Source: Candidatus Eiseniibacteriota bacterium
GTDB taxonomy: Bacteria > ARS69
NCBI GenBank assembly: GCA_052390515.1
Contig: JBQTGV010000008.1
Coordinates: 1-45,152, forward strand
Reading direction: 5' to 3'
Length of the DNA stretch: 45,152 nt
The position numbers and the translations under genes were made by a program. How positions within the stretch are numbered: position 1 is the stretch's first letter; each line of letters begins with the position of its first letter. A model generated the notes under the pieces. It was given only the letters and a program-made list of their open reading frames with translations, was not told the DNA's origin and searched no databases. Shown piece after piece: positions 17,112 to 45,038 of the stretch.

Positions 17112-17564
17112 CTACTTCGGCTTCGGAAGGAACTCGTCGAAGCGCGCCTTGACCAGCCCCCACGTCGAGGAGACCGTTCCCGGGACGTCGAGACTCGTGG
17201 AGACGCGCACCACTCCGGACATCCCGTCGAACTCGTGCGGTGGACTGAAGAACTCGTAGTCCCCGGTCTCGCCGAACGTGCGTTCGAAGAACTCGTTCGC
17301 GTGCAGCGTTCCGGAGATCCAGAGCGCGCCCGCCATCGGGTCGGCGCTCCCCGTGCCGCTGGTGACCGCATGGTCCAGGCCGAAAGGATCGACGTTCACC
17401 CAGCGCACCGTGTCTCCCGGACGGACCGAGATCTCGGCGGGGACGAAGCGCGGCTCGAAGTTCACCGTGGTCATCTGCACGACGTGCAGGTCGCCGGCGG
17501 CAACCGGGCCGGCCGCCACGGTGAGAGCGAAGAGGAGAGCGTGCGCGAAGCGGGGCGAAGCCAT
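17112..17564 (-). CDS. Secreted plastocyanin/cupredoxin-like protein with C-terminal STWGLVK tail
   Basis: Signal peptide; FVPAEISVRPGDTVRWVN, HAVTS and GDYEFFSPPH...GMSGVVRV; GGAGG RBS. Confidence 0.8.
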   Translation of the reverse strand: MASPRFAHALLFALTVAAGPVAAGDLHVVQMTTVNFEPRFVPAEISVRPGDTVRWVNVDPFGLDHAVTSGTGSADPMAGALWISGTLHANEFFERTFGETGDYEFFSPPHEFDGMSGVVRVSTSLDVPGTVSSTWGLVKARFDEFLPKPK

Positions 17565-17594
17565 TCGGGCCCTCCAGACGACGCTCCGACTTTA

Positions 17595-18287
17595 TCAAAG
17601 GTCCCCGGGTGGGTCCAGCCCCAGCACCTCCCGGGCGCGGGAACTCTCCAGGCTGGGCACGACCCAGTGAGCGCCCTCCGCCGCCAGCGTCGCCTCCGAG
17701 GCGTTCCCGGTCGCCACCGCGAGACACTCTGCGCCGGCCGCCAGGGCGCAGCGCACGTCGTGCACGGTGTCCCCGACCAGGAGGACCGGCGCGTCCGCGC
17801 CGGCGGCCCGCCTGCCCCGCTCGACGGCGAGCCGGGTGAGCTCGACCCGGCTCTCCGAGTCGGAGCCGAAGCCCCCGAAGGCGAAGTAGCCATGCAGGCC
17901 GCCGCGCTGGAGCTTCGCCCTGGCTGCCGGCTCGAAGTTGCCGGTGGCCAGCCCGAGCGCCACGTCCTCCCTCCGCGCGAGGCCCTCGACCGCCTCGCGG
18001 GCGCCGGGCAGGACGCGGAACCGCGATCCGGTGCCGGCCAGCACCTCGGGCAGCGCTTCCATGTAAAGGCCGGTGAGGTCGGTCATCTCGTCGTCGGCCA
18101 GGTCCCGGGCCAGGCGAGACCTGGCGATTCCCCGGAGGATCGCGGGATCGGTCAAGCCGTGCACCTCGATCCCCGAGGCCGCGTCCCGCAGGCCGTAGCG
18201 CGAGCGGAAGGCGCGGCTCAGAGCTTCGAGTCCGGCGCCGCCCGAGAGCAGCAGCGTGCCGTCGATGTCGAAGAGGATGATGCGCAC
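17595..18287 (-). CDS. HAD-superfamily hydrolase
   Basis: LFDIDGTL, ATGN, GGFGSD and VGDTVHD motifs. Confidence 0.9.
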   Translation of the reverse strand: MRIILFDIDGTLLLSGGAGLEALSRAFRSRYGLRDAASGIEVHGLTDPAILRGIARSRLARDLADDEMTDLTGLYMEALPEVLAGTGSRFRVLPGAREAVEGLARREDVALGLATGNFEPAARAKLQRGGLHGYFAFGGFGSDSESRVELTRLAVERGRRAAGADAPVLLVGDTVHDVRCALAAGAECLAVATGNASEATLAAEGAHWVVPSLESSRAREVLGLDPPGDL

Positions 18288-18345
18288 TCGCGGGACGATG
18301 CCAGCGCGGCGCCGGCCCGGTCAACGCCGCGCGGCGGGGAATCGC

Positions 18346-18374
18346 TTGACACTACTTCCCGCGGTGGGCAGGCT
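18346..18374 (+). promoter_or_regulatory. Putative sigma70 promoter of the DUF6754 operon
   Basis: Perfect TTGACA (18346-18351), 17-nt spacer, CAGGCT (18369-18374). Confidence 0.55.
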
Positions 18375-18430
18375 ACCCCGGCTGGAAACGCCCGACGCGG
18401 CCGCCCGCGTCTCCGGAGGGCAAGGCGTCG

Positions 18431-19648
18431 ATGCTGAACCTCGCGAGCGGTGGCCTCGTCCGGTGCGCGTGGTTCCCCCCGGTGATGCTCGCCTGCGTCG
18501 GGGCGGTCGCCGCGCAGACCGAGACCCCCGTCGTTCCCCCTCCGGCCCCGCCCGACCGGGTCGTGGTCACCGACGTTCCCAACGACGGGGGAACCGCGCT
18601 CCAGATCTCCTGGGAGCCCTCCCCGGACGCCGGGCGCCCCGGAGTCATGGAGGGGTACCGGATCCTCCGCGCCGGCGCGGGGGGTGACCTCGCCGAGGTC
18701 GGCTCGACGGCTCCCGCTGCCACCACGTTCCGCGACACCAGCCTCGATGCCGGAACCTTCGTGTACCGCGTCGTGGCGTTCGGACCCGGCGGGGACGGGG
18801 AATCGGCCGAGTCGGCCGCGGCGAGCCCTCGCGCGAACTGGTTCAACCGATCGCGCGGCAACATCCTCGTCGTCATGCTCCTCGTGTGCACCGCCATCAT
18901 CGTATACATCGAACGCGCCCGCGCAGGGCAGAAGATGTACATCCGCAAGATCGCCGGCATGGATGCGGTCACCGAGGCGGTGGGTCGTGCGACGGAGATG
19001 GGCGCTCCGGTCCTCTACATCTCGGGCATCCAGGACATGGACGACGTGCAGACCGTCGCGGGGATCACCATCCTCGGTTCCATCTCCCGCATGATCGCCG
19101 AGTACGAGACGACTCTGCTGATGCCCACCAGCCGGTCGCTGGTGATGAGCACCGCGCGCGAGACCGTCAAGGAAGCCTACCTGTCCGCCGGCCGGCCCGA
19201 CGCCTACCGCGACGACAGCATCTACTACGTCACCGACGAGCAGTTCGGCTTCGTGGCGCACGTGGACGGACTGATGCTGCGCAAGAGGCCGGCGGCGTGC
19301 TTCTACCTGGGCGCGTTCTTCGCCGAGTCGCTCATCCTGGCCGAGACGGGCAACTCCATCGGCGCCATCCAGGTCGCCGGGACCGCCCAGCCGACCCAGC
19401 TTCCCTTCTTCGTGGCGGCGTGCGACTACACCCTGATCGGCGAGGAGCTGTTCGCGGCCAGCGCGTACCTCTCGCAGGACGAGAAGATGCTGGGCTCGCT
19501 CAAGGGGCAGGACTTCGGCAAGCTCATTGCGATGGTGTTCATCGCGGTGGGCGCCGTCTTCGCCACCCTGGGTTCGGTCACTGATGCGGCTCCGATCGCG
19601 TGGGTGAACGAGCATCTCTACGAGCTCTGGTCGGGAACGAGCGAATGA
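18431..19648 (+). CDS. Fibronectin type III + DUF6754-like membrane protein
   Basis: Signal-like N-terminus, FN3-like domain (D.PNDGG.ALQISW...Y..YRVVA), TM, then IRKIAG.DA..EAVGRATEMG...AESLILAE.G...QLPFFVAACDYTLIGEELFAASAYLS and a terminal TM. Confidence 0.8.
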   Translation: MLNLASGGLVRCAWFPPVMLACVGAVAAQTETPVVPPPAPPDRVVVTDVPNDGGTALQISWEPSPDAGRPGVMEGYRILRAGAGGDLAEVGSTAPAATTFRDTSLDAGTFVYRVVAFGPGGDGESAESAAASPRANWFNRSRGNILVVMLLVCTAIIVYIERARAGQKMYIRKIAGMDAVTEAVGRATEMGAPVLYISGIQDMDDVQTVAGITILGSISRMIAEYETTLLMPTSRSLVMSTARETVKEAYLSAGRPDAYRDDSIYYVTDEQFGFVAHVDGLMLRKRPAACFYLGAFFAESLILAETGNSIGAIQVAGTAQPTQLPFFVAACDYTLIGEELFAASAYLSQDEKMLGSLKGQDFGKLIAMVFIAVGAVFATLGSVTDAAPIAWVNEHLYELWSGTSE

Positions 19649-19661
19649 CGGAGGAGCAGCG

Positions 19662-20360
19662 TTGAAGCGCACCGTTCCCCTCTTCATCACCGGCATCGTC
19701 GGGACGCTCCTCATCATCTCGTACTTCGTGCCGCACCCTCCGTTCGACGAGGTGGAGCGGAAGATCCCCGACTTCTTCAACATCATCGCCGCGTTCGCCT
19801 TCATTCTCGGCGGGGGAAACCTCCTGCGCATCCACCTGACCAGGATCACCTCGCGCGGACACGAGTGGACCTACTCGCTGGTGACGGTGACCGGCTTCGT
19901 GGTGATGCTGCTCGCCGGGCTCCTCAAGATCACCGGCGTGAACGGAGCGTCGGTCGGAATGGAAGGTTCGGTCGACCTCGCCGACTCGCGCCTGGTTTAC
20001 GACTGGCTGTACAAGGCGATCTTCGTGCCCTGCCAGGCGACCATGTTCTCGCTGCTCGCCTTCTTCGTGGCGTCGGCGAGCTACCGCGCGTTCCGGGCGA
20101 AGACTCCCGAAGCCACGTTGCTGCTCATCGCCGCATTCGTGGTCCTGGTGAGGGCCACCCCGGTCGCGAACCTGACCGCGTGGATACCGGCACCCTTCAG
20201 CGACTACTTCCACATTCCCAACCTCTCGGCGTGGATCATGTCCGTGCCGAACCTGGCCGGCCAGCGCACGATCCAGATCGGCATCGCGCTCGGGATCGTC
20301 TCCAACTCCTTGCGGCTGATCCTCGGCGTCGAGCGGTCGCATCTCGGCGGGAGCGACTGA
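19662..20360 (+). CDS. Uncharacterised polytopic membrane protein (DUF6754 cluster partner)
   Basis: GGAGGAG RBS and TTG start; about 5-6 hydrophobic segments; ATMFSLLAFFVASASYRAFRAK and SLRLILGVER. Confidence 0.85.
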   Translation: MKRTVPLFITGIVGTLLIISYFVPHPPFDEVERKIPDFFNIIAAFAFILGGGNLLRIHLTRITSRGHEWTYSLVTVTGFVVMLLAGLLKITGVNGASVGMEGSVDLADSRLVYDWLYKAIFVPCQATMFSLLAFFVASASYRAFRAKTPEATLLLIAAFVVLVRATPVANLTAWIPAPFSDYFHIPNLSAWIMSVPNLAGQRTIQIGIALGIVSNSLRLILGVERSHLGGSD

Positions 20361-20361
20361 C

Positions 20362-21240
20362 GTGGAGAACTTCTTCCGGGCGCTCGGAGCGCTCGACCGC
20401 CGCTGGATCTTCCTCTTCGTGGCCGTGGCGGTGACCGTCCCGCTGCTCTTCGAGCGGCCCGCCCCGGTGCCCCCGAGCCCCATCGTGCGGGACCTGTTCG
20501 ACGCGGTGGACGCCCTCCCCGCGGGATCGCGGGTGCTGCTCTCGCTCGACTACGGGCCGAGCACCGTTCCGGAGAACGATCCGATGGCGCACGCCGTCGC
20601 GCGGCACTGCCTCTCCCGCGACGTCGACCTGTACCTCATGACGATCTGGGCGACGGGACCGCCGCTGGTGGTCCATCTCCTGGACACGGTCATCGCCCGG
20701 GACTTCTCCGACAAGGTCTACGGCGAGGACTACGTGAACCTGGGGTACAAGGTCGGCAACCAGGGCGTCATCCAGGCGCTGACCAGCGACTTCCAGGGGC
20801 AGTTCACCACCGACGCCGGCTGGGGCGAAGGGCATCCTTCGCGGCCGGTGAGCGAGATCCCGATGATGAAGCCGATCCGCACCGTCGCGGACATGGATCT
20901 CGTCGTGGCGATCGGGTCGGGCAGGCCCGGCGTCAAGGAGTGGGTGCAGTTCGCCGGAGATCCGACCGGAGTGAAGGTGGGCGGGGGAGTCACCGCCGTC
21001 GAGGCTCCGCTGCTCTATCCCTACTACCCGAGGCAGCTGCAGGGGTTGATGGGCGGGCTGCTCGGCGCGGCGGAATACGAGGCGCTGCTCGTCGACAACT
21101 ACCCGCACTTCGAGGAAGCGGCGCAGACGGCGCTCATCCGCATGTTCCCGCAGACGGTCGCGCACCTGGTGATCGTGTCCTTCGTCGTCCTCGGGAACAT
21201 CTCCTACTTCGTTCTCCGGCGCGCGGAGCGGAAACGATGA
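20362..21240 (+). CDS. Uncharacterised membrane-anchored protein (DUF6754 cluster partner)
   Basis: N-terminal TM (DRRWIFL...), soluble alpha/beta domain (DYGPS..PE..PM, YGEDYVNLGY, GLMGGLLGAAEYE), C-terminal TM. Confidence 0.85.
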   Translation: MENFFRALGALDRRWIFLFVAVAVTVPLLFERPAPVPPSPIVRDLFDAVDALPAGSRVLLSLDYGPSTVPENDPMAHAVARHCLSRDVDLYLMTIWATGPPLVVHLLDTVIARDFSDKVYGEDYVNLGYKVGNQGVIQALTSDFQGQFTTDAGWGEGHPSRPVSEIPMMKPIRTVADMDLVVAIGSGRPGVKEWVQFAGDPTGVKVGGGVTAVEAPLLYPYYPRQLQGLMGGLLGAAEYEALLVDNYPHFEEAAQTALIRMFPQTVAHLVIVSFVVLGNISYFVLRRAERKR

Positions 21241-21923
21241 GCTTCCTCTCTCCGGACGTGCAGGTGACGATGGGGGCGTTCCTCACGCTCATGATCTTCA
21301 GCTTCCTGTACAAGGACAACCCCGCCTACAAGTTCGCCGAGCACCTCTTCGTCGGGGTTTCCGCCGCATACTGGATGGTGCAGGGCTTCTGGCAGCAGAT
21401 CGTGCCGAACCTCTTCGCCAAGCTCTTCCCGCGCCAGTTCGAGGGCGTGGTCGAGGCGGGGCAGCAGCCCGAGTACATCTACGTGATCCCCCTGCTGCTC
21501 GGGATCATCCTGCTGCTGCGGCTGGTGGCCCCGATCGCGTGGATCTCCCGCTGGGCCATGGCCTTCATCATCGGGTACACCGCGGGGTCGAACCTCACGC
21601 GATTCCTCGTCTCGGACTTCCTGATCCAAGTCCAGAAGACGCTGGAGCTGCCTCTCGTGAATCTGCAGGCCGGCGGCTGGCTGCAGGCGATCATGTACTC
21701 CCTCTCCAACGTGGTGCTGGTCGCCGGAACCATCTGCGGGCTGGTGTACTTCTACTTCTCGAAGGAACACACCGGCGCGTTCGGACGTGCGTCACGCGTC
21801 GGGATCTGGGTCCTGATGGTGGCCTTCGGCGCGAGCTTCGGCTACACGGTGATGGCGCGCATCTCGCTGCTGATCGGGCGGATCGAGTTCCTGCGCGGCT
21901 GGGTGACCGGGCTCTTCTCCTGA
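21237..21923 (+). CDS. Uncharacterised polytopic membrane protein (DUF6754 cluster partner)
   Basis: ATGA overlap with the previous gene; TLMIFSFLYKDNPAYKFAEHLFVG, YFYFS and FGASFGYTVMARISLLIGR; several TMs. Confidence 0.85.
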   Translation: MSFLSPDVQVTMGAFLTLMIFSFLYKDNPAYKFAEHLFVGVSAAYWMVQGFWQQIVPNLFAKLFPRQFEGVVEAGQQPEYIYVIPLLLGIILLLRLVAPIAWISRWAMAFIIGYTAGSNLTRFLVSDFLIQVQKTLELPLVNLQAGGWLQAIMYSLSNVVLVAGTICGLVYFYFSKEHTGAFGRASRVGIWVLMVAFGASFGYTVMARISLLIGRIEFLRGWVTGLFS

Positions 21924-21940
21924 CCCCTACGGTTCCGTTC

Positions 21941-23755
21941 ATGTCCAAGGTCCGGCGGACGTTGCCCGCCCTCGCGTGGCTCGTCTTCGCGCTCCCGCAC
22001 CCGTGTGCGGCCGACGAGCCGACGGTCGAGTGGCGGCCCTGGGGAGGAGCCGCCTTCAAGGAAGCCGGGGAACGCGGCCTGCCCGTGTTCCTGCTGCTCA
22101 CCGCGCCCTGGAACAGGGATCACTTCGTGCTCGTCGAGCGGCTCTTCGCCGATGAACGCGTGGCGGCCGCCCTCGCGCAGCAGGCGGTTCCGGTGCGCGC
22201 GGACGCGTCCCTGCACCCCGAGCTGCGTTCGCTCTATTCGATCAGCAGCGGGCTCCTTCCGTCGTTCCACTTCCTGGACGCGAAGGGCGAGGTGCTCGCT
22301 TCCCTTCCGCCGCTGGAGCGGGACGAGCTGCTCCACTTCCTGGGGCAGATGGCGGACTCGCCGCCGCGGCTCGCACCAGGGAAGCCGGAGGCGGGGGAGA
22401 CCTGGGAGATGAACCCGCGCAAGCTCGCCAACCGCATCGCGCGGAACCTCCTCGACGGATTCGACGCGGGCGCGCGGGATCCCGGCGAGCGACACCGGGA
22501 CCTCGATCCGTCCGCGATCGCCTTCCTCGTGGAGTACACCGGCGCGTACGCGCAGCGGCGCGAGATGCTGCCGGAGCTGGACCACGAGATCCGCGCGCTG
22601 CTGGCCGGCCCCTACCACGACCGCGTGGACGGCGGCTTTCACCGGGCGCTCGCCGACCCGCTCGCCGGCGTGGTGCACCACGAGAAGCTGCTCCGTCCCA
22701 ACGCGGAACTCGGCGCGGCGCTCGCGTCGCGGTACCGCATGTCCGGGACCGAGGAGCTGGGCGCGGCCGCGGCGGGAACACTGGCGATGCTGAACGCCGC
22801 CCTGACGCCGGGCGAGCCGGGGCTGTGCTCCGGATCCCTGGGCGCGGACGTGTACGGCGCTGCGGGCGAGGTGAGCGTGCACGGCGCGAGGTACTACTCG
22901 ATGAACGAGCCCACGCGCCGGCAGCACCCGCGCCCGCCGGCGTCGGCCGACGTCCCGGTCGGCGCGAACTTCGTCGCGCAGGAGTCCCTGCTCATGTACC
23001 TGCGCGTGTTCCGCAGCGCGGAGATCGCCGCGGCGATGAGGCGGGGAGGGGAGGCGCTCCTGGCGAGGGGCTTCGAAGCGGACGGGGCCGCGCGACGCGC
23101 GCTCGATCTCGCCGGCGCAGGCAACCTCCGCGATCAAGCCGACGCCGGCTCAGGACTCCTCGCCTATCACGCCGTGACCGGAGATCCTCGGGCGCTGGCG
23201 GCGGCGGGGGGAATCGCGCGGGAGCTGAAGCGCCATTTCTGGGACGGGGAACGCCGCGCGTTCCGCAGCGTGTCGCGCGCGTCGGACCTGCCGGAGCGCA
23301 TCCGCGACGCTCCGCCGGATCCTGCCTGGAACGGCATCGCGCTCCGCTTCCTCGTCGAGTGGGCGGCGGTCGGCGGAGAGGAGCCCGCGCGCGATGTGGC
23401 CCGCGCTTCCCTGGACGCCTGGGCGGGCCGCATGCCCGTCGAACCGCGCGGCACCGGCGAGCTCGGTCGCGCCGCGCTTCGCGCCGAACGCCCGCTTCCC
23501 GTGCTGGTTCTCGTGGCCGATCCGGCGTCGCCGGAGGGCGAAACCCTCCGCGACCTCGCGCTTCGCCTCTTCGACCCGCTGCTCCTGGTTCGCTGGATCG
23601 ACCCGGCGACGCCCGGCGACGCCCGCGCGTTCGGTCTGGATCCTTCGGAGGAGCCCGCCGCGTACCTCGTGTGGGACGGGCCTTCCGGTCCGATCCGTGA
23701 CGGCGACGCGCTCCGCGAAGTGTTCGACCGGGTGCGGCGGCGCCTCCGGCGCTGA
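21941..23755 (+). CDS. DUF255/thioredoxin-like + six-hairpin (YyaL/SSP411-like) protein, degenerate
   Basis: VEWRPWGGAAF.EA....PVFL, D.VDGGFHR...HHEKLL, DQA and HFWD motifs; signal-peptide-like N-terminus; lacks CxxC. Confidence 0.72.
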   Translation: MSKVRRTLPALAWLVFALPHPCAADEPTVEWRPWGGAAFKEAGERGLPVFLLLTAPWNRDHFVLVERLFADERVAAALAQQAVPVRADASLHPELRSLYSISSGLLPSFHFLDAKGEVLASLPPLERDELLHFLGQMADSPPRLAPGKPEAGETWEMNPRKLANRIARNLLDGFDAGARDPGERHRDLDPSAIAFLVEYTGAYAQRREMLPELDHEIRALLAGPYHDRVDGGFHRALADPLAGVVHHEKLLRPNAELGAALASRYRMSGTEELGAAAAGTLAMLNAALTPGEPGLCSGSLGADVYGAAGEVSVHGARYYSMNEPTRRQHPRPPASADVPVGANFVAQESLLMYLRVFRSAEIAAAMRRGGEALLARGFEADGAARRALDLAGAGNLRDQADAGSGLLAYHAVTGDPRALAAAGGIARELKRHFWDGERRAFRSVSRASDLPERIRDAPPDPAWNGIALRFLVEWAAVGGEEPARDVARASLDAWAGRMPVEPRGTGELGRAALRAERPLPVLVLVADPASPEGETLRDLALRLFDPLLLVRWIDPATPGDARAFGLDPSEEPAAYLVWDGPSGPIRDGDALREVFDRVRRRLRR

Positions 23756-23859
23756 CCATCGCGGGTGCCGACCGCCGATCATCAAGGACGGCGCCTCCGT
23801 TGCCGAGGAACCACTCGGCCCTTCCACGGTTGAAGGGCTCACCTTAGGATGCGGTGATC

Positions 23860-24186
23860 ATGTCTCGTACTCTCTCCTGCGTCGTCTTCGCCTGGGCCGT
23901 GGCCGCCCCGCTGCTGTGCTCGGGCGGCGTCCTCCAGCACGCTTGTCCGGAAGAGACGCCGTCCACGTGCGGCCACGAGGAAGACTGCGAGGCCGATCCG
24001 TGCCTGGACGCCAGCGCCCCCGGCGGCGCTTCCGGCGCGCGCGCGCCGATCGTGCTCGCCCTCGCCGGCGGGTCCTTCCCGGTCTCGCCGCTTCCCCCCG
24101 CACCGTCGGTGAGTCCCGCCGGATACGCGGGCGGCGCTCCCCCTCCCGAATCGTTCCGCTCCGGCACGCGCCCGCTCCTCCTCTGA
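23860..24186 (+). CDS. Small Cys/His-rich exported protein upstream of czcCBA (CzcI-like position)
   Basis: Hydrophobic N-terminus, LCSGGVLQHAC...CGHEEDCEADPC, Pro-rich tail; TAGGAT -10-like element at 23845-23850. Confidence 0.6.
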   Translation: MSRTLSCVVFAWAVAAPLLCSGGVLQHACPEETPSTCGHEEDCEADPCLDASAPGGASGARAPIVLALAGGSFPVSPLPPAPSVSPAGYAGGAPPPESFRSGTRPLLL

Positions 24187-24358
24187 TCGCCTGAGCGCGT
24201 GCTGATCCGGCACGCGACCTGACTCCACCGAAACCGCGCTTCGCCGGACGGTCGAACGCCGACTCCGGCCGGAGGCGCCGACTCTGCTCGAGCTTTCCCG
24301 GGAGGCCTGTCGTGGGCGAACGTACACTTCCTGCAACTCCTGGCCACGGAGTGCGGCG

Positions 24359-25645
24359 ATGAGCCGCGCGGCCGTCGCCGTCGCCGTGGTGATCCTCGCG
24401 CCGGCAGCCGGTGCCCGCGCGCAGGACGCGAACGCACCGGCAGAGCCCACCGCCGCGTTGAGCCTCGCCGACGCGGTCGCGTTGGCCGTCGCCTACAGCC
24501 CGGAGCTGCGGGCGTACGCCTCGGAGATCCGAGCCGCGGACGCGCGCGCGCTGCAGGCCGGAGCGCGTCCGAACCCCGAGCTGTCGCTCTCGGTCGAAAA
24601 CATCTCCGGGACGCTACCGGGGAGCGCGGCCGCGGAGGTCACGCTGTCCCTCGGACAGCTGCTCGAGCTCGGAGGGGATCGCGGAGCCCGCGTCGGGGCG
24701 GCGGCGGCAGAGAGATCGGTCGCGGAACGGGATCTCGAGGCGCGACGAGCGGCCGTCCTCGCCGAGGTCGTCGTGCGCTACCTGACGGCGCTCGCGGCGG
24801 ACGAGCTCGCCGCGCTCGCGGCCGAGGCGCGAGAGACCGCCGAGGAGATCGCGGAATCGGTCGGGAACCGTGTGCGGGCCGGCGCGTCGTCCCGGGCCGA
24901 GCTGACCCGCGCGGAGGTGGAGGTCGCCCGCGCCCGGCTCGAGAAGAGCCTCGCCGAGCAGGACCAAGCGATGTCGCGCGCTCTCCTCGCCAGCTGCTGG
25001 GGCGAGTCGTCGGCGCGCTTCCCCGCGCTGAGCGGCGCTCTCGATCGTTCGATGGCGGTCCCGGAGCTCGAGTCCCTCCTCGAACGCGCAGAGGCCAGCC
25101 CCGAGGTTACGCGCTGGGATCTCGAGGTCCTGGCCGGCCGGCAGCGTCTCGGCGTGGCGCGCGCGGCGCGCGTCCCCGACCTGGAGATCGGTGGTGGCGT
25201 GCGGCGGCTCGCCGAGTCCGACGACTACACGCTCGTGGCCGGACTCACCGCGCCGCTTCCGCTCTTCGACCGCAACCGGGGAGGCATCCGGGAGGCGGAG
25301 GCTTCCGTGGAGCGGGCCGGAGCGAGCCGCGAACAGGCCCGTGCCGCGCGTCGCCTCGAGATCATCGGGGCGCACGGACGCATCACGCGGAGCCGGCTGG
25401 AGCTCGCCGCCCTTCGCGAGGCCGTGCTCCCCGGCGCCGAGCGCGCCCTCGACGAGATCGAGGGCGGCTACCGAGAGGGGCGATTCGGCTCGCTCGATCT
25501 GCTCGACGCCCGCAGGACATTGACCGCGGTCCGCCGCGACGAGATCGAGACCTTGCTGGACCTCCACCTGACCGCCACAGAGATCGAGCGGCTCGTCGGC
25601 GGACCCTTGATCCCCGCCGGCCGACCGGAGCGAGGAAGCCCCTGA
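24359..25645 (+). CDS. czcC: TolC-family outer membrane factor of a heavy-metal RND efflux system
   Basis: PNPEL, QLLELGG, PLPLFDRNRG and GYREG...LDLLDARR motifs; first of the C-B-A genes. Confidence 0.88.
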   Translation: MSRAAVAVAVVILAPAAGARAQDANAPAEPTAALSLADAVALAVAYSPELRAYASEIRAADARALQAGARPNPELSLSVENISGTLPGSAAAEVTLSLGQLLELGGDRGARVGAAAAERSVAERDLEARRAAVLAEVVVRYLTALAADELAALAAEARETAEEIAESVGNRVRAGASSRAELTRAEVEVARARLEKSLAEQDQAMSRALLASCWGESSARFPALSGALDRSMAVPELESLLERAEASPEVTRWDLEVLAGRQRLGVARAARVPDLEIGGGVRRLAESDDYTLVAGLTAPLPLFDRNRGGIREAEASVERAGASREQARAARRLEIIGAHGRITRSRLELAALREAVLPGAERALDEIEGGYREGRFGSLDLLDARRTLTAVRRDEIETLLDLHLTATEIERLVGGPLIPAGRPERGSP

Positions 25646-41529: not shown

Positions 41530-41693
41530 GGCCCAGTTCAACGCTGTCCCAAAAAGTGTCCAGTTCCAGCGCTAGCCAAGGAGGTGTGCACCTCGTCGGA
41601 TGTCCCGAGGGGCCGAGGTGAGAGGCGGCCCCTCAGTAACCCCGGAAGTCTCATCGTGATCCTGTGCTGCAAAGCCTTAGGGGGTCTGCACAA

Positions 41694-44600
41694 ATGACGA
41701 AACGCCTTTCCGCAGGCGTTCTGCTGTTCGTCGCCGCGATGTTCGTCTTTGCGGTGACTGCGAATGCAGAGCGCCTCACTCCGCGCGAGTGGACGGACAA
41801 GAGCGATCCGTATCGCGGCCTGCCGCTCTTCTTCCGTTCCGCTGCCGGAACCACCTTCGTTCAGGTGAACAGCACCGGCGGGTGCGATCCTGCCCTCGTC
41901 ACCGCGGGCGGAGACGTTCATGACGGCTCCACGCACACGAGTGGCCAAGTGTTCTGCTTCGAGGGTCCGGACAGCCTGTGGCCGGCCGGCCCGGGCGGGA
42001 CGCAGCAGGACGATTGGGGCCACTGGTCGCGCAACCTGCCGCCAATTCCCCTCGCCAGCAAGTGGCACATCACGACGCTCGACGGACATGCCGGCAGCGG
42101 CACGTTCAGCTCGTGGTGCGGCTGCGACAGTCTGGGGACGAATCCCTCGTGCGACGACGTGACCTTCTGGGTGAACAAGAAGGGTTACGGCAACGAGTGG
42201 GAGTTCTCCCAGATCCTGGACGTGTCGAACCTCGGCGCGGCCTCCGGAGGTACGCTCGAGTTCGACGTCCGCTACGACAGCGAGTGCGTCTACGACTACC
42301 TGTACCTCGAGTACCACAACGGAACGAGCTGGTCGATCGTGCTCGACTCCGCCGGAACGGCCGCCGTGTTCAACGGCGTCTCCGGCTCGAGCGCCATTGT
42401 CACGAACACCTGCGACGGTGGCGGCGGCGGCGCGACGGACGGCAACATCTACAACGACGGCACCATCACGGCCGGCGGGAACTACCACGGGAACTCGACG
42501 TGGTACACGAACGTGACCTTCCCCGTGCCCGCGGTGGGGAATTTGAAGTTCCGTTGGAGAGGCTTCTCCGACCCGGCTTGGTCCGACGAGGACGGCCGCG
42601 GTGACACCGACGGCATCGCTGCCATCGACAACGTTACGGTGACGTTCAACAACGGCACGGTCGTGAACGACAACTTCGAGTTCGGCGACTACGTGCACAT
42701 CACCACGACGGCCGGCGGCGGAAACTCGGCCTCATGGGCGTTCGAGCAGGGTGGCAACACCTATGACGGCTGGCACCTCACGTTCGACCCGATGTACAAG
42801 AACAAGGGCAACACCTGCACGTTCTCGAACGACTGGATGTGGGCGGCGAAGCCGGATGCTTCGGCGATCCCCGAGAACCAGTTCGAGTTCTTCCTGACGT
42901 CGCCGGTCATCCCGTGCGACGGATGGACGGGCGGCACGGTGCTGTACTCGAACTACCAGTGCTTGGAAGATCCGCGTGATGACTACTCCAACCAGCACAT
43001 GCGGTTCTACGACGCTTCCAAGACCGCGTGGTCGCCGTGGCAGGACTTCGACGGCTTCATTTCCTTCGCCGGTTGCGAGTTCTGGAGCGTCAACGACTTC
43101 GAGGATCTGACGCCGTTCCTGGGCACCACGATCGACTCGCTCCAGCTCGGCTTCGAGCTCCTCGACCCGGACCAGCCCGGCGACTTCTCGTGGGGCAAGC
43201 ATGCCAACGTGCAGTACGTGATCGACAAGGTCGCGTTCGGCAGCTACGACGGAACCGGCACGGTGTTCACGGCGCGTAACATCGACCTGTTCGCGGACAC
43301 GTTCTCGCGCGCGGATCCCGCGCACACTCCGTTCCTGCAGAACGCCGAGCAGGCCAACTGGAACGGTGCCGGCGGGACGCGGATCTTCGCGGACTCGGAT
43401 TCGCTCAACGTCGCGATCACCGACTTCAACGGCCTCACCAGCCAGAACGTGGACATTTTCTGGCGAGTGAACACCGGTCACGGCACGGCCTTCGGTGCTT
43501 GGCAGACCAAGGCGGTGCACTTCTCCGTGCAGGACGCGACCCGTCCGGCGGGTGAAGGCACTTACCGCACCATCATCGGCGCGGACGATGGCGGCGTGGA
43601 AGACGAGACCGCTTCCGGCGACGGCTTGATCTGGATCCGGGGACAGACGGTCGAGTACTACATCACCGTCGACGACGATGTGGCGGGCGTGAATCTCTCG
43701 TACTTCCCGGGTACGGCCGATCCGGCTACGACTGGCGGACCGACGTACTTCGAGTTCTCGATCCTGCCGTTCAACATCGACACCGGCGGCAACGTCGCCT
43801 CCACGTTCGACGTGAACGGCAAGCCGATTCCTGCGGCGGGCAAGCACTTCACGCTGCTCGTCGACGACTACACGCGGAACGCGCTCGATTTCCAGAACTC
43901 GACGGGCTTCAACCCGACGGGCGGTATCGGACAGGGTGCGTTCACGACGCCGGTTCTGGACCAGCCGGAGGACATGACGGAGCGTGCTCTGGCCCTCCTC
44001 TACGGAGGCTCGGAGACCAGTCCGCGCTGGGACAAGTACGACGTGCTCGGTGCCGGCTCGAGCGTGCAGTGCGAGCCGCGCGGCGTGTCCGACGTCGGGA
44101 ACGGGCTGGGCGCGTACATGACCGACAATCCGCTGTTCATCTACTACGATGCGCTCATCTGGCTGCAGGGCACGTTCGACGCGTACTCCTATGCGGACAC
44201 GACGCGCCTCGAGCTGGCCAACTACCTGGAGCGCGGCGGATGCCTGTTCTCCACCGGTGACCAGGTCGCCTTCCACCTTGGGACGGGCGGCAACGATGCG
44301 GACTCGCTCATTGGTTTCGGCGTCGAGTACTTCGGTTTCGCGTTCACCAACGTGGTGGACGAGACGACCGTGGACCGCGTGCTGAACATCACGGGTGAGG
44401 CGGGAACTTCGATGGCCGGACTGGAGCTCGGCATCTACGCCGAGTGCCCGATCCGGACGACGCCGGACCGGATGTTCCTGTCCGTGCCGGTCGGCGACGG
44501 CGTTCCCAGAGTTCTCGGGCGCTACACCGACGGCTCGTTCCCGAACGGTAGCGACAACACCCGGGTCTGCTTCACGAAGTGCGATCAGCCGGGCGTCGGC

Positions 44601-45038
44601 GGTACCGCGGCACACTTGGCATTCGGCCTGGAAAACCTGCTGGATGACGTGTCGCGTGCTCGCCTGCTCGGCCGGTTCCTCGGAACGGACTGCGGTCTGT
44701 CGGTCAACGCGGTCGTCGGCAACAACGACGGCGTGGATGCACCGCTGATCGCGAACGGCTTCGGCTTCAATCTGGCCGAGGCGCGTCCGAATCCGTTCTC
44801 CAGCGAGACCTCCATCCAGTTCAGCGTGCCGGCGAACACTCACGTGAAGATCGAGGTGTACAACATCCTCGGTCAGAAGGTGCGGACGCTGGTCGACGAG
44901 AACATGGAAGCGAACTCGTACGTGCGTGACTGGGACGGCCGCTCCGATCAGGGCGCGGAAGTCTCGAGCGGTATCTACTTCTACAAGATGGTGGCCGGCG
45001 ACTTCAGCGCCACCAAGAAGGCGGTACTGCTCAAGTAG
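41694..45038 (+). CDS. Large (1114 aa) secreted protein with C-terminal FlgD-Ig/T9SS-like domain
   Basis: Signal peptide MTKRLSAGVLLFVAAMFVFAVTANA; Asp/Gly/Thr/aromatic-rich body; tail FNLAEARPNPF...VYNILGQKVRTL...WDG...SSGIYFYKM...KKAVLLK. Confidence 0.88.
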   Translation: MTKRLSAGVLLFVAAMFVFAVTANAERLTPREWTDKSDPYRGLPLFFRSAAGTTFVQVNSTGGCDPALVTAGGDVHDGSTHTSGQVFCFEGPDSLWPAGPGGTQQDDWGHWSRNLPPIPLASKWHITTLDGHAGSGTFSSWCGCDSLGTNPSCDDVTFWVNKKGYGNEWEFSQILDVSNLGAASGGTLEFDVRYDSECVYDYLYLEYHNGTSWSIVLDSAGTAAVFNGVSGSSAIVTNTCDGGGGGATDGNIYNDGTITAGGNYHGNSTWYTNVTFPVPAVGNLKFRWRGFSDPAWSDEDGRGDTDGIAAIDNVTVTFNNGTVVNDNFEFGDYVHITTTAGGGNSASWAFEQGGNTYDGWHLTFDPMYKNKGNTCTFSNDWMWAAKPDASAIPENQFEFFLTSPVIPCDGWTGGTVLYSNYQCLEDPRDDYSNQHMRFYDASKTAWSPWQDFDGFISFAGCEFWSVNDFEDLTPFLGTTIDSLQLGFELLDPDQPGDFSWGKHANVQYVIDKVAFGSYDGTGTVFTARNIDLFADTFSRADPAHTPFLQNAEQANWNGAGGTRIFADSDSLNVAITDFNGLTSQNVDIFWRVNTGHGTAFGAWQTKAVHFSVQDATRPAGEGTYRTIIGADDGGVEDETASGDGLIWIRGQTVEYYITVDDDVAGVNLSYFPGTADPATTGGPTYFEFSILPFNIDTGGNVASTFDVNGKPIPAAGKHFTLLVDDYTRNALDFQNSTGFNPTGGIGQGAFTTPVLDQPEDMTERALALLYGGSETSPRWDKYDVLGAGSSVQCEPRGVSDVGNGLGAYMTDNPLFIYYDALIWLQGTFDAYSYADTTRLELANYLERGGCLFSTGDQVAFHLGTGGNDADSLIGFGVEYFGFAFTNVVDETTVDRVLNITGEAGTSMAGLELGIYAECPIRTTPDRMFLSVPVGDGVPRVLGRYTDGSFPNGSDNTRVCFTKCDQPGVGGTAAHLAFGLENLLDDVSRARLLGRFLGTDCGLSVNAVVGNNDGVDAPLIANGFGFNLAEARPNPFSSETSIQFSVPANTHVKIEVYNILGQKVRTLVDENMEANSYVRDWDGRSDQGAEVSSGIYFYKMVAGDFSATKKAVLLK

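Follow-up and report, generated by a model that had tools for sequence, protein, structure and literature searches.

A conserved four-gene membrane module with a linked GlmL-family ATPase: a candidate ATP-coupled envelope system

What is the function of an operon that encodes four membrane proteins, only the first of which matches a described family? The question is raised by genes g1–g4 in a 45,152-nucleotide stretch of a Candidatus Eiseniibacteriota genome (hereafter the window; it represents contig C8 of an assembly of 4.27 Mb in 223 contigs). All four genes lie on the plus strand and are joined by gaps of 13 nt (g1/g2) and 1 nt (g2/g3) and by an ATGA overlap (g3/g4). A sequence-only reading of the window had taken them for a self-contained operon of four tightly coupled genes that encodes a dedicated complex, such as an ATPase-independent transporter, an ion-driven module or an envelope sensor. 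The coordinates and junctions given there are exact, and the dedicated four-protein unit is upheld by the comparative analysis described below. The self-contained and ATPase-independent character is not: a fifth gene follows g4, and the same genome carries a second module behind the genes for an ATPase and a 376-aa partner. The four proteins very probably belong to a conserved complex that is functionally tied to this ATPase pair.

Relatives of g1 were surveyed with one genome per species, which gave at least 622 loci, and 74 of these were fetched. By database label, the carriers include Zixibacteria, Ignavibacteria, Gemmatimonadota, Eisenbacteria, Planctomycetota, Acidobacteriota, Latescibacterota, Coatesbacteria, metagenome-assembled genomes labeled as 'Deltaproteobacteria', and others. 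The system is large: when sequences are clustered at 90% identity, g1 gives more than 7,999 clusters and g3 gives 4,915. The genes g2, g3 and g4 directly follow g1, in the same order, in 57 of the 62 loci that have at least 2.7 kb of downstream sequence. The exceptions are of three kinds. All genes are present but interrupted by inserted open reading frames (ORFs) or inserted domains in L039, L050 and L053; the second of two copies is truncated in L045, the first being complete; and L070 contains a lone g1 without g2–g4 nearby. In one locus g3 and g4 are fused into a single ORF (L060:13613-15328). This is the only true case, as an apparent g3–g4 fusion in L066 proved to be an artefact of the longest-ORF rule.

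The module often occurs in tandem copies: 82 complete modules were found in 51 loci, and 23 loci have at least two of them. The distance matrices of the subunits from these 82 modules are strongly correlated for all six pairs (r = 0.81–0.85). Shuffling of modules within loci reduces the mean correlation to 0.19–0.25, and none of 300 shuffles reaches the observed value. Judged from the sequences, the modules have been duplicated and kept as blocks, with no exchange of subunits. The co-divergence is consistent with module-specific contacts between the subunits, which it does not prove. A complex prediction for residues 140–386 of g1 together with g2, g3 and g4 gave neither support nor counter-evidence for contact. 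A small basic protein of about 105–135 aa with no family is encoded after the last module of tandem arrays in 12 loci of the Zixibacteria and Ignavibacteria type (e.g., L015:15615-15944 and L020:16131-16478).

The genome of the window has another DUF6754 gene, on contig C176, that was detected in a whole-genome profile scan in which g1 itself scored 406.4 bits. According to tblastn, this locus encodes paralogues of all four proteins in the same order and with 36–45% identity; we refer to it as module B and to the copy in the window as module A. Directly upstream of module B are genes for a 131-aa protein, a 615-aa ATPase and a 376-aa protein, whose ends overlap or nearly abut. The 131-aa protein has no family. 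The 615-aa protein matches PF13941 ('MutL', the GlmL family) from end to end (E 1e-129) and is encoded by the only PF13941 gene in the genome. The 376-aa protein has only a weak RnfC-type barrel-sandwich match. Searches with the 376-aa partner and the ATPase against PDB sequence profiles returned nothing significant.

This two-locus layout is conserved in the phylum-level group of the window, which comprises 12 species genomes. DUF6754 is present in all 12 of them, with at least two matches in 10. The complete genome G008 has two copies 1.09 Mb apart, and the order on the ATPase side is as on C176: the 131-aa gene, the ATPase gene, the 376-aa gene, the four module genes, two genes for family-5 solute-binding proteins, and a permease gene. 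In G008, as in the genome of the window, the end of module B overlaps with the beginning of a gene for a family-5 solute-binding protein that belongs to a peptide-type ATP-binding cassette (ABC) transporter. The overlap is followed by a second solute-binding-protein gene and by peptide-type ABC permease genes in L077:9990-11600 (contig C176 of G000) and L079:9041-12213, and a complete genome from the same family shows an identical arrangement.

Among the 74 fetched loci, the ATPase has a homologue encoded no more than 8 kb from the module in 26, the 376-aa partner in 28, and the 131-aa protein in 8. When all ORFs from 75 loci were clustered without bias, the only neighbours to recur were membrane-module genes, the 376-aa partner and small proteins; beyond these and the ATPase, none is present in more than 12 loci. 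In eight loci, the genes for the ATPase and its partner are separated by one for a secreted or anchored protein (about 250 aa). Five other module-bearing genomes were scanned as a whole, and each of them has exactly one PF13941 match (about 430 bits), including four in which the fetched locus showed no ATPase. The class of one acidobacterial carrier provided a sample of 81 Acidobacteriota genomes. DUF6754 is found in eight of them, and a PF13941 match of 426–430 bits is found in the same eight, always less than 3 kb from DUF6754. Since these genomes are kin, the agreement is to be read as a pattern rather than a statistic. A single further genome of the sample, which lacks DUF6754, encodes a PF13941 protein with a higher score (G067:C61:5425-6810; 515 bits, 516-aa frame), which is probably of the canonical GlmL type.

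These data bear on the proposal that the four proteins form a self-sufficient complex, i.e., an ion-driven transporter or an ion-motive module, and that the copy in the window works without a GlmL-like protein. Module A indeed has a conserved promoter of its own and no ATPase gene in the 45-kb window, no ATPase gene was found within 8 kb in 48 of the 74 loci, and polar residues are conserved inside predicted transmembrane (TM) segments, for instance N53 in g2. However, every module-bearing genome that was checked, namely that of the window and the five others, encodes the ATPase, the presence and absence of DUF6754 and of this ATPase type are identical across the 81 genomes, and no match to ion-translocating families was found in Pfam or NCBIfam. 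The phylogeny adds a further argument. In a midpoint-rooted FastTree tree of 124 g1 cores, old paralogue types track the position in tandem arrays, and g1 of the window is placed beside eight single modules that form a clade. Seven of these, from Planctomycetota and Acidobacteriota, are located directly behind the 376-aa gene, and for the eighth the contig starts with the module itself; therefore, the module type of the window is ATPase-linked elsewhere. Independence from the ATPase is thus quite improbable. As module A has its own promoter and the ATPase pair sits by module B, we infer from the genome content that module A may be served in trans by the pair encoded on C176.

The linked ATPase resembles GlmL/MutL, the accessory protein of the coenzyme-B12-dependent glutamate (methylaspartate) mutase, and the GlmL-related protein Or-4, in that all of them match PF13941. 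It differs from both in several respects. The C176 protein falls below the equivalog cut-offs for GlmL (NF040745; 234.6 against 475) and Or-4 (NF040744; 218.7 against 600) and below the cut-off of the glmL_fam model TIGR01319 (177.1 against 204). It is about 150 aa longer, and its gene adjoins genes for membrane proteins. No mutase gene recurred in the ORF clustering of the module loci, where no mutase-specific profile search was made. Because the equivalog cut-offs are missed widely and no mutase gene recurs nearby, the database name GlmL is, as far as sequence comparison goes, misleading for this protein.

The sequence-only reading had described two TM–soluble domain–TM proteins and two polytopic proteins of about 230 aa, and this description is borne out by g1 and g3 and by g2 (232 aa) and g4 (228 aa), respectively (Table 1). 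Its assignment of the C-terminal part of g1 to DUF6754 (PF20539) is confirmed by a match to model positions 2–250 of 257 (E 1.4e-121, 405 bits, cut-off 27). Proteins of this family are usually annotated as 'fibronectin type III domain-containing protein'. The membership of g1 extends over its full length, and it shares with its relatives the layout of a fibronectin type III (FN3) domain, a TM helix, an alpha/beta domain and another TM helix. The family entry has no assigned function and covers g1 only, and not its three partners or the ATPase pair.

Table 1. Features of the window and their positions
Feature	Coordinates	Strand	Length or residues	Description
Probable promoter	18346..18374	+		TTGACA 18346-18351, 17-nt spacer, CAGGCT 18369-18374; 57 nt before g1 ATG
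g1	18431..19648	+	405 aa	Signal peptide (~1-28), FN3, TM1, DUF6754 domain, TM2, short acidic tail
g1, FN3 domain	18554-18802	+	strands 42-124	Predicted exported
g1, TM1		+	140-164	
g1, DUF6754 domain	18830-19576 (Pfam match)	+	175-348	Alpha/beta domain
g1, TM2		+	351-384	Helix
g2	19662..20360	+	232 aa	TTG start; ~6 TM segments (hydropathy scan)
g3	20362..21240	+	292 aa	GTG start; TM1 13-30, alpha/beta domain, TM2 256-291, basic C-terminus
g3, alpha/beta domain	20479-21099	+	40-246	Rossmann-like; predicted periplasmic
g4	21237..21923	+	228 aa	Polytopic; three hydrophobic regions at scan threshold
Fifth gene	21941..23755	+	604 aa	ATG start, 17 nt past g4 stop; signal-peptide-like N-terminus, DUF255/thioredoxin-like domain
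Cupredoxin gene	17112-17564	-		Small exported protein, plastocyanin/azurin family
Large secreted protein genes	222-2843 and 41664-45038			One with FG-GAP/ASPIC repeats and FlgD-Ig-like end, the other with T9SS C-terminal sorting domain

An AlphaFold2 model of g1 built from a 72-row alignment has a predicted local distance difference test score (pLDDT) of 84.0 and a predicted template modelling score (pTM) of 0.64. The N-terminus is disordered and hydrophobic in the model and is probably a signal peptide. The domain that follows has the FN3 beta-sandwich fold, despite a score below the 25-bit cut-off of PF00041 (15.5 bits, E 0.02). In the DUF6754 domain, strands and helices alternate according to DSSP, as in alpha/beta proteins. 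TM1 is followed by basic residues, and the protein ends in an acidic tail. Under the positive-inside rule, this charge pattern would put the alpha/beta domain in the cytoplasm and the FN3 domain outside. The earlier proposal that FN3 is the outer-facing unit agrees with this prediction, as the domain lies after the signal peptide and before TM1, a place taken by beta-propellers or multiple FN3 domains in other lineages. Across 72 relatives g1 has 53 invariant columns, nearly all of them within the alpha/beta domain. They form the motifs GRATEMG, GRPD, TDEQF, FFAESLI-AETG, IQ-AGTA and QLPFF-AACDYTLIGEE, which are found at or just after the ends of beta-strands in the model, a position that would usually correspond to the ligand- or partner-binding site of an alpha/beta protein. 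A search of the ESM Atlas with the g1 core yielded no usable match.

The other three proteins yielded only sub-threshold noise in Pfam and NCBIfam and matched no curated family of transport, secretion or defence proteins; no characterised transporter family was matched by any of the four. The absence of a Walker A, GGDEF, kinase or transporter motif, as claimed earlier, is likewise confirmed by the profile searches and by regular expressions, which found no Walker A, ABC signature (LSGGQ), GGDEF, EAL or histidine-kinase H-box motif in g1–g4. PADLOC had no match for seven proteins. In g2, an invariant loop S138-A139-x-x-R142-A143-F144-R145 between TM4 and TM5 is predicted to be cytoplasmic. The loop 87–113 between TM3 and TM4, predicted to be periplasmic, contains an insert of about 400 aa in L040 and L050. 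Homologues of g2 with such inserts are encoded at L040:13241-15013, L041:12947-14725 and L050:4182-6017; the insert contains FG-GAP repeats in L040 and matches no family in L050. The AlphaFold2 model of g3 (pLDDT 96.2, pTM 0.91) shows a TM helix, an alpha/beta domain and a second TM helix. The named closest comparisons are RCK/KTN (TrkA-type) domains for g3 and MT0777 (PDB 1kjn), the matches of g3 being generic, and PDB sequence profiles gave no match to g3. About six TM segments can be recognized in g4 by eye, three of them below the hydropathy threshold; its invariant motifs are found around S22-F23, D27-N28, E35 and Y171-F172-x-F174-S175-x-x-H178. The ESM Atlas gave no usable match to g4. 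Counted partly by eye, the four proteins have about 16 TM helices in total. No duplication among the subunits could be detected, as hhalign gave a probability of 0.2 for g2 against g4 and of 8.5 for g1 against g3, the latter in a TM helix only.

Two alpha/beta domains, one predicted inside (g1) and one outside (g3), might also be the catalytic parts of a membrane-anchored enzyme complex whose substrate is a small molecule or a component of the envelope. In that case, the hydantoinase-like ASKHA protein would not be a motor but would activate the substrate with ATP, as in group translocation or biosynthesis. The invariant residues of g1 include many acidic and polar ones in short motifs at strand ends, where alpha/beta enzymes may be expected to have their ligand site. 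The ATPase and its partner are enzyme-like in conservation, with 73% and 66% mean column identity across phyla, and PF13941 proteins resemble the hydantoinase-A branch, to which the C176 ATPase has weak matches (Hydantoinase_A). Nevertheless, no catalytic family is matched by g1–g4, the structural matches of g3 are generic, and interchangeable protein-binding ectodomains and several modules per ATPase better fit target-specific modules. We regard the enzyme complex as unlikely.

The nature of the target is hinted at by the variation of the outward-facing parts. Among 269 long relatives of g1 (710–2025 aa), several FN3 domains, PQQ-type beta-propellers or RHS repeats precede an unchanged core. 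A 795-aa DUF6754 protein (L070:7821-10205) has a C-terminal fusion with Peptidase_S49 (SppA-type; E 1e-43) after the last TM helix; L070 comes third among the DUF6754 loci of a single Zixibacteria chromosome. By sequence comparison, the outward-facing parts appear to be interchangeable and the core constant. Taken together with the FG-GAP insert in g2, the S49 fusion and the overlap of module B with a peptide-type ABC transporter operon, the variable ectodomains weakly suggest that the target is a protein or peptide in the periplasm.

A protein that is variable outside and invariant inside, as g1 is, also shows the typical pattern of a receptor. In an envelope sensor, the ectodomains would bind ligands, and the invariant cytoplasmic domain would signal to the ATPase pair. 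Against this, no kinase, GGDEF, helix-turn-helix or other output domain is present in g1–g4, and none is recurrent in the neighbourhood; moreover, a sensor would hardly need another three membrane subunits, for which about 14 TM helices were counted. We consider a signalling role very improbable.

We propose instead that the window encodes one module of an ATP-coupled membrane machine. The four genes would encode one copy, module A, of a conserved complex with four subunits in the inner membrane. This complex would form the membrane part of a system of seven genes, together with the actin-fold (ASKHA) ATPase of the GlmL/MutL family, an apparently obligate cytoplasmic partner of 376 aa with a putative barrel-sandwich N-terminus, and the small protein. 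Module A has its own probable promoter, and the lone ATPase pair on C176 would act on it in trans. This pair may be received in the cytoplasm by the near-invariant alpha/beta domain of g1 and by the invariant loop of g2, ATP-driven movements would travel through the TM helices to the outer face, and there the target would be held by FN3 in g1 and by the alpha/beta domain in g3. The module would move or process this target, which is most likely derived from a peptide or protein. Several diverged modules could share one ATPase, like several S-components on one energy-coupling factor (ECF) energiser. That the system is such a machine, with the four proteins of the window as one target-specific module and a single C176 ATPase pair energising both modules, has in our judgement about an even chance of being correct. 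Actual translocation of a substrate by the module is more doubtful.

The likeness to ECF and ABC transporters is by analogy only: in the present system, a single ATPase pair would serve between one and three diverged modules, and the invariant loop of g2 could act like a coupling helix. The differences are that the linked ATPase has an actin/Hsp70-type and not an ABC fold, that the module has no Walker A or LSGGQ motif, and that no membrane family of ABC or ECF transporters is matched. Cytoplasmic ATPases are also coupled to membrane proteins with sizeable periplasmic domains in FtsEX, MacB and LolCDE, which act by mechanotransmission, and in PilM-PilN-PilO, where PilM is an ASKHA protein docked on bitopic membrane partners. 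None of these systems has sequence or profile similarity to g1–g4 in Pfam or NCBIfam. The broadest form of our proposal is speculative and rather unlikely as a whole. It describes a new class of primary-active machines, in which an actin/Hsp70-fold ATPase and a barrel-sandwich partner would be the shared energiser of exchangeable four-subunit modules, and ectodomains such as FN3, beta-propellers or the S49 peptidase would pick proteins or peptides in the periplasm to be imported, extracted or processed, in parallel to ABC and ECF transporters and unrelated to both.

Several points weigh against the ATP-coupled machine. The extreme conservation of the ATPase pair also fits an enzyme with precise chemistry rather than a motor, and the 45 kb of the window contain no ATPase gene. 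Block duplication alone can yield co-divergence of the subunits, and the compared genomes are kin and not independent samples. A homologue of the solute-binding-protein gene stands beside the module in only two of the 74 loci, both from close relatives, so that this association is lineage-specific. Foldseek and VIA-align searches with the whole g1 model returned FN3 matches only, which leaves the fold class of DUF6754 to DSSP; the structure search with the g3 domain retrieved generic Rossmann-like matches only; and the hydropathy scan yields no clear orientation for g4 in the membrane. Finally, gene linkage, co-occurrence, domain architecture and fold class are observed, and topology, physical contacts, ATP coupling and the substrate are deduced from them.

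The known bacterial ATP-driven membrane machines use, to our knowledge, ABC, P-type, AAA+/RecA-type or rotary ATPases. If the proposal is true, an envelope machine driven by an ASKHA ATPase would represent a new principle of energisation. No curated family describes three of the four membrane proteins of this large and old system, and the annotation of its ATPase as a helper of B12 enzymes is probably misleading for thousands of genomes. A search of open-access full text and preprints found no paper naming DUF6754, PF20539, PF13941 or a GlmL-like family, and among the matches listed for GlmL, one of which concerns mesaconase, none was on the module/ATPase system. What the window adds is a detached module with a conserved promoter, a two-locus layout that a small phylum has kept, a phyletic distribution that matches that of the ATPase exactly, and the co-divergence test. 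The detached module makes the idea of one ATPase for several modules testable.

The promoter TTGACA-17-CAGGCT was also part of the sequence-only reading. A generic sigma-70 scan detected no sites, and the CAGGCT hexamer shares only two of six positions with TATAAT; TTGACA alone is not enriched in the window (2 observed, 5.6 expected). However, each of the four close relatives (L003, L004, L005 and L006), like the window itself, has the pattern TTGACA-N16-18-CASGCT ahead of g1, against just two matches in the other 73 loci. In the alignment with these relatives, the spacer around the pattern is otherwise poorly conserved. As judged by this conservation, the promoter is probably real. The spacer between g1 and a divergent HAD-hydrolase gene is 143 nt long. 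In the region, the GC content is 65–72%, and at third codon positions it is at least 0.90 in the g1–g4 frames where measured.

The fifth gene, downstream of g4, matches Pfam Thioredox_DsbH (E 1.1e-08, 35.7 bits, cut-off 27; frame read from 21947). No terminator-like site was detected in 17500–24500, and an Rfam search of the same region gave no match. The gene is probably co-transcribed with g1–g4 in its own lineage; among the listed sequencing runs, no RNA run covering this DNA was found. Since full-length homologues follow g4 in only three of the 74 loci, those of the closest relatives (L003, L004 and L006), it reads as a lineage-specific passenger outside the conserved system.

Two further features of the window involve exported proteins. 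One of the two large secreted proteins is the single protein in the window with a sorting domain of the type IX secretion system (T9SS), and its gene is 20 kb from g1–g4; the module is also present in loci labelled as Planctomycetota and Acidobacteriota, which are not known to have T9SS. The cupredoxin gene (E 1e-07) is located between the genes for endonuclease III and the HAD hydrolase and is kept in the four close relatives.

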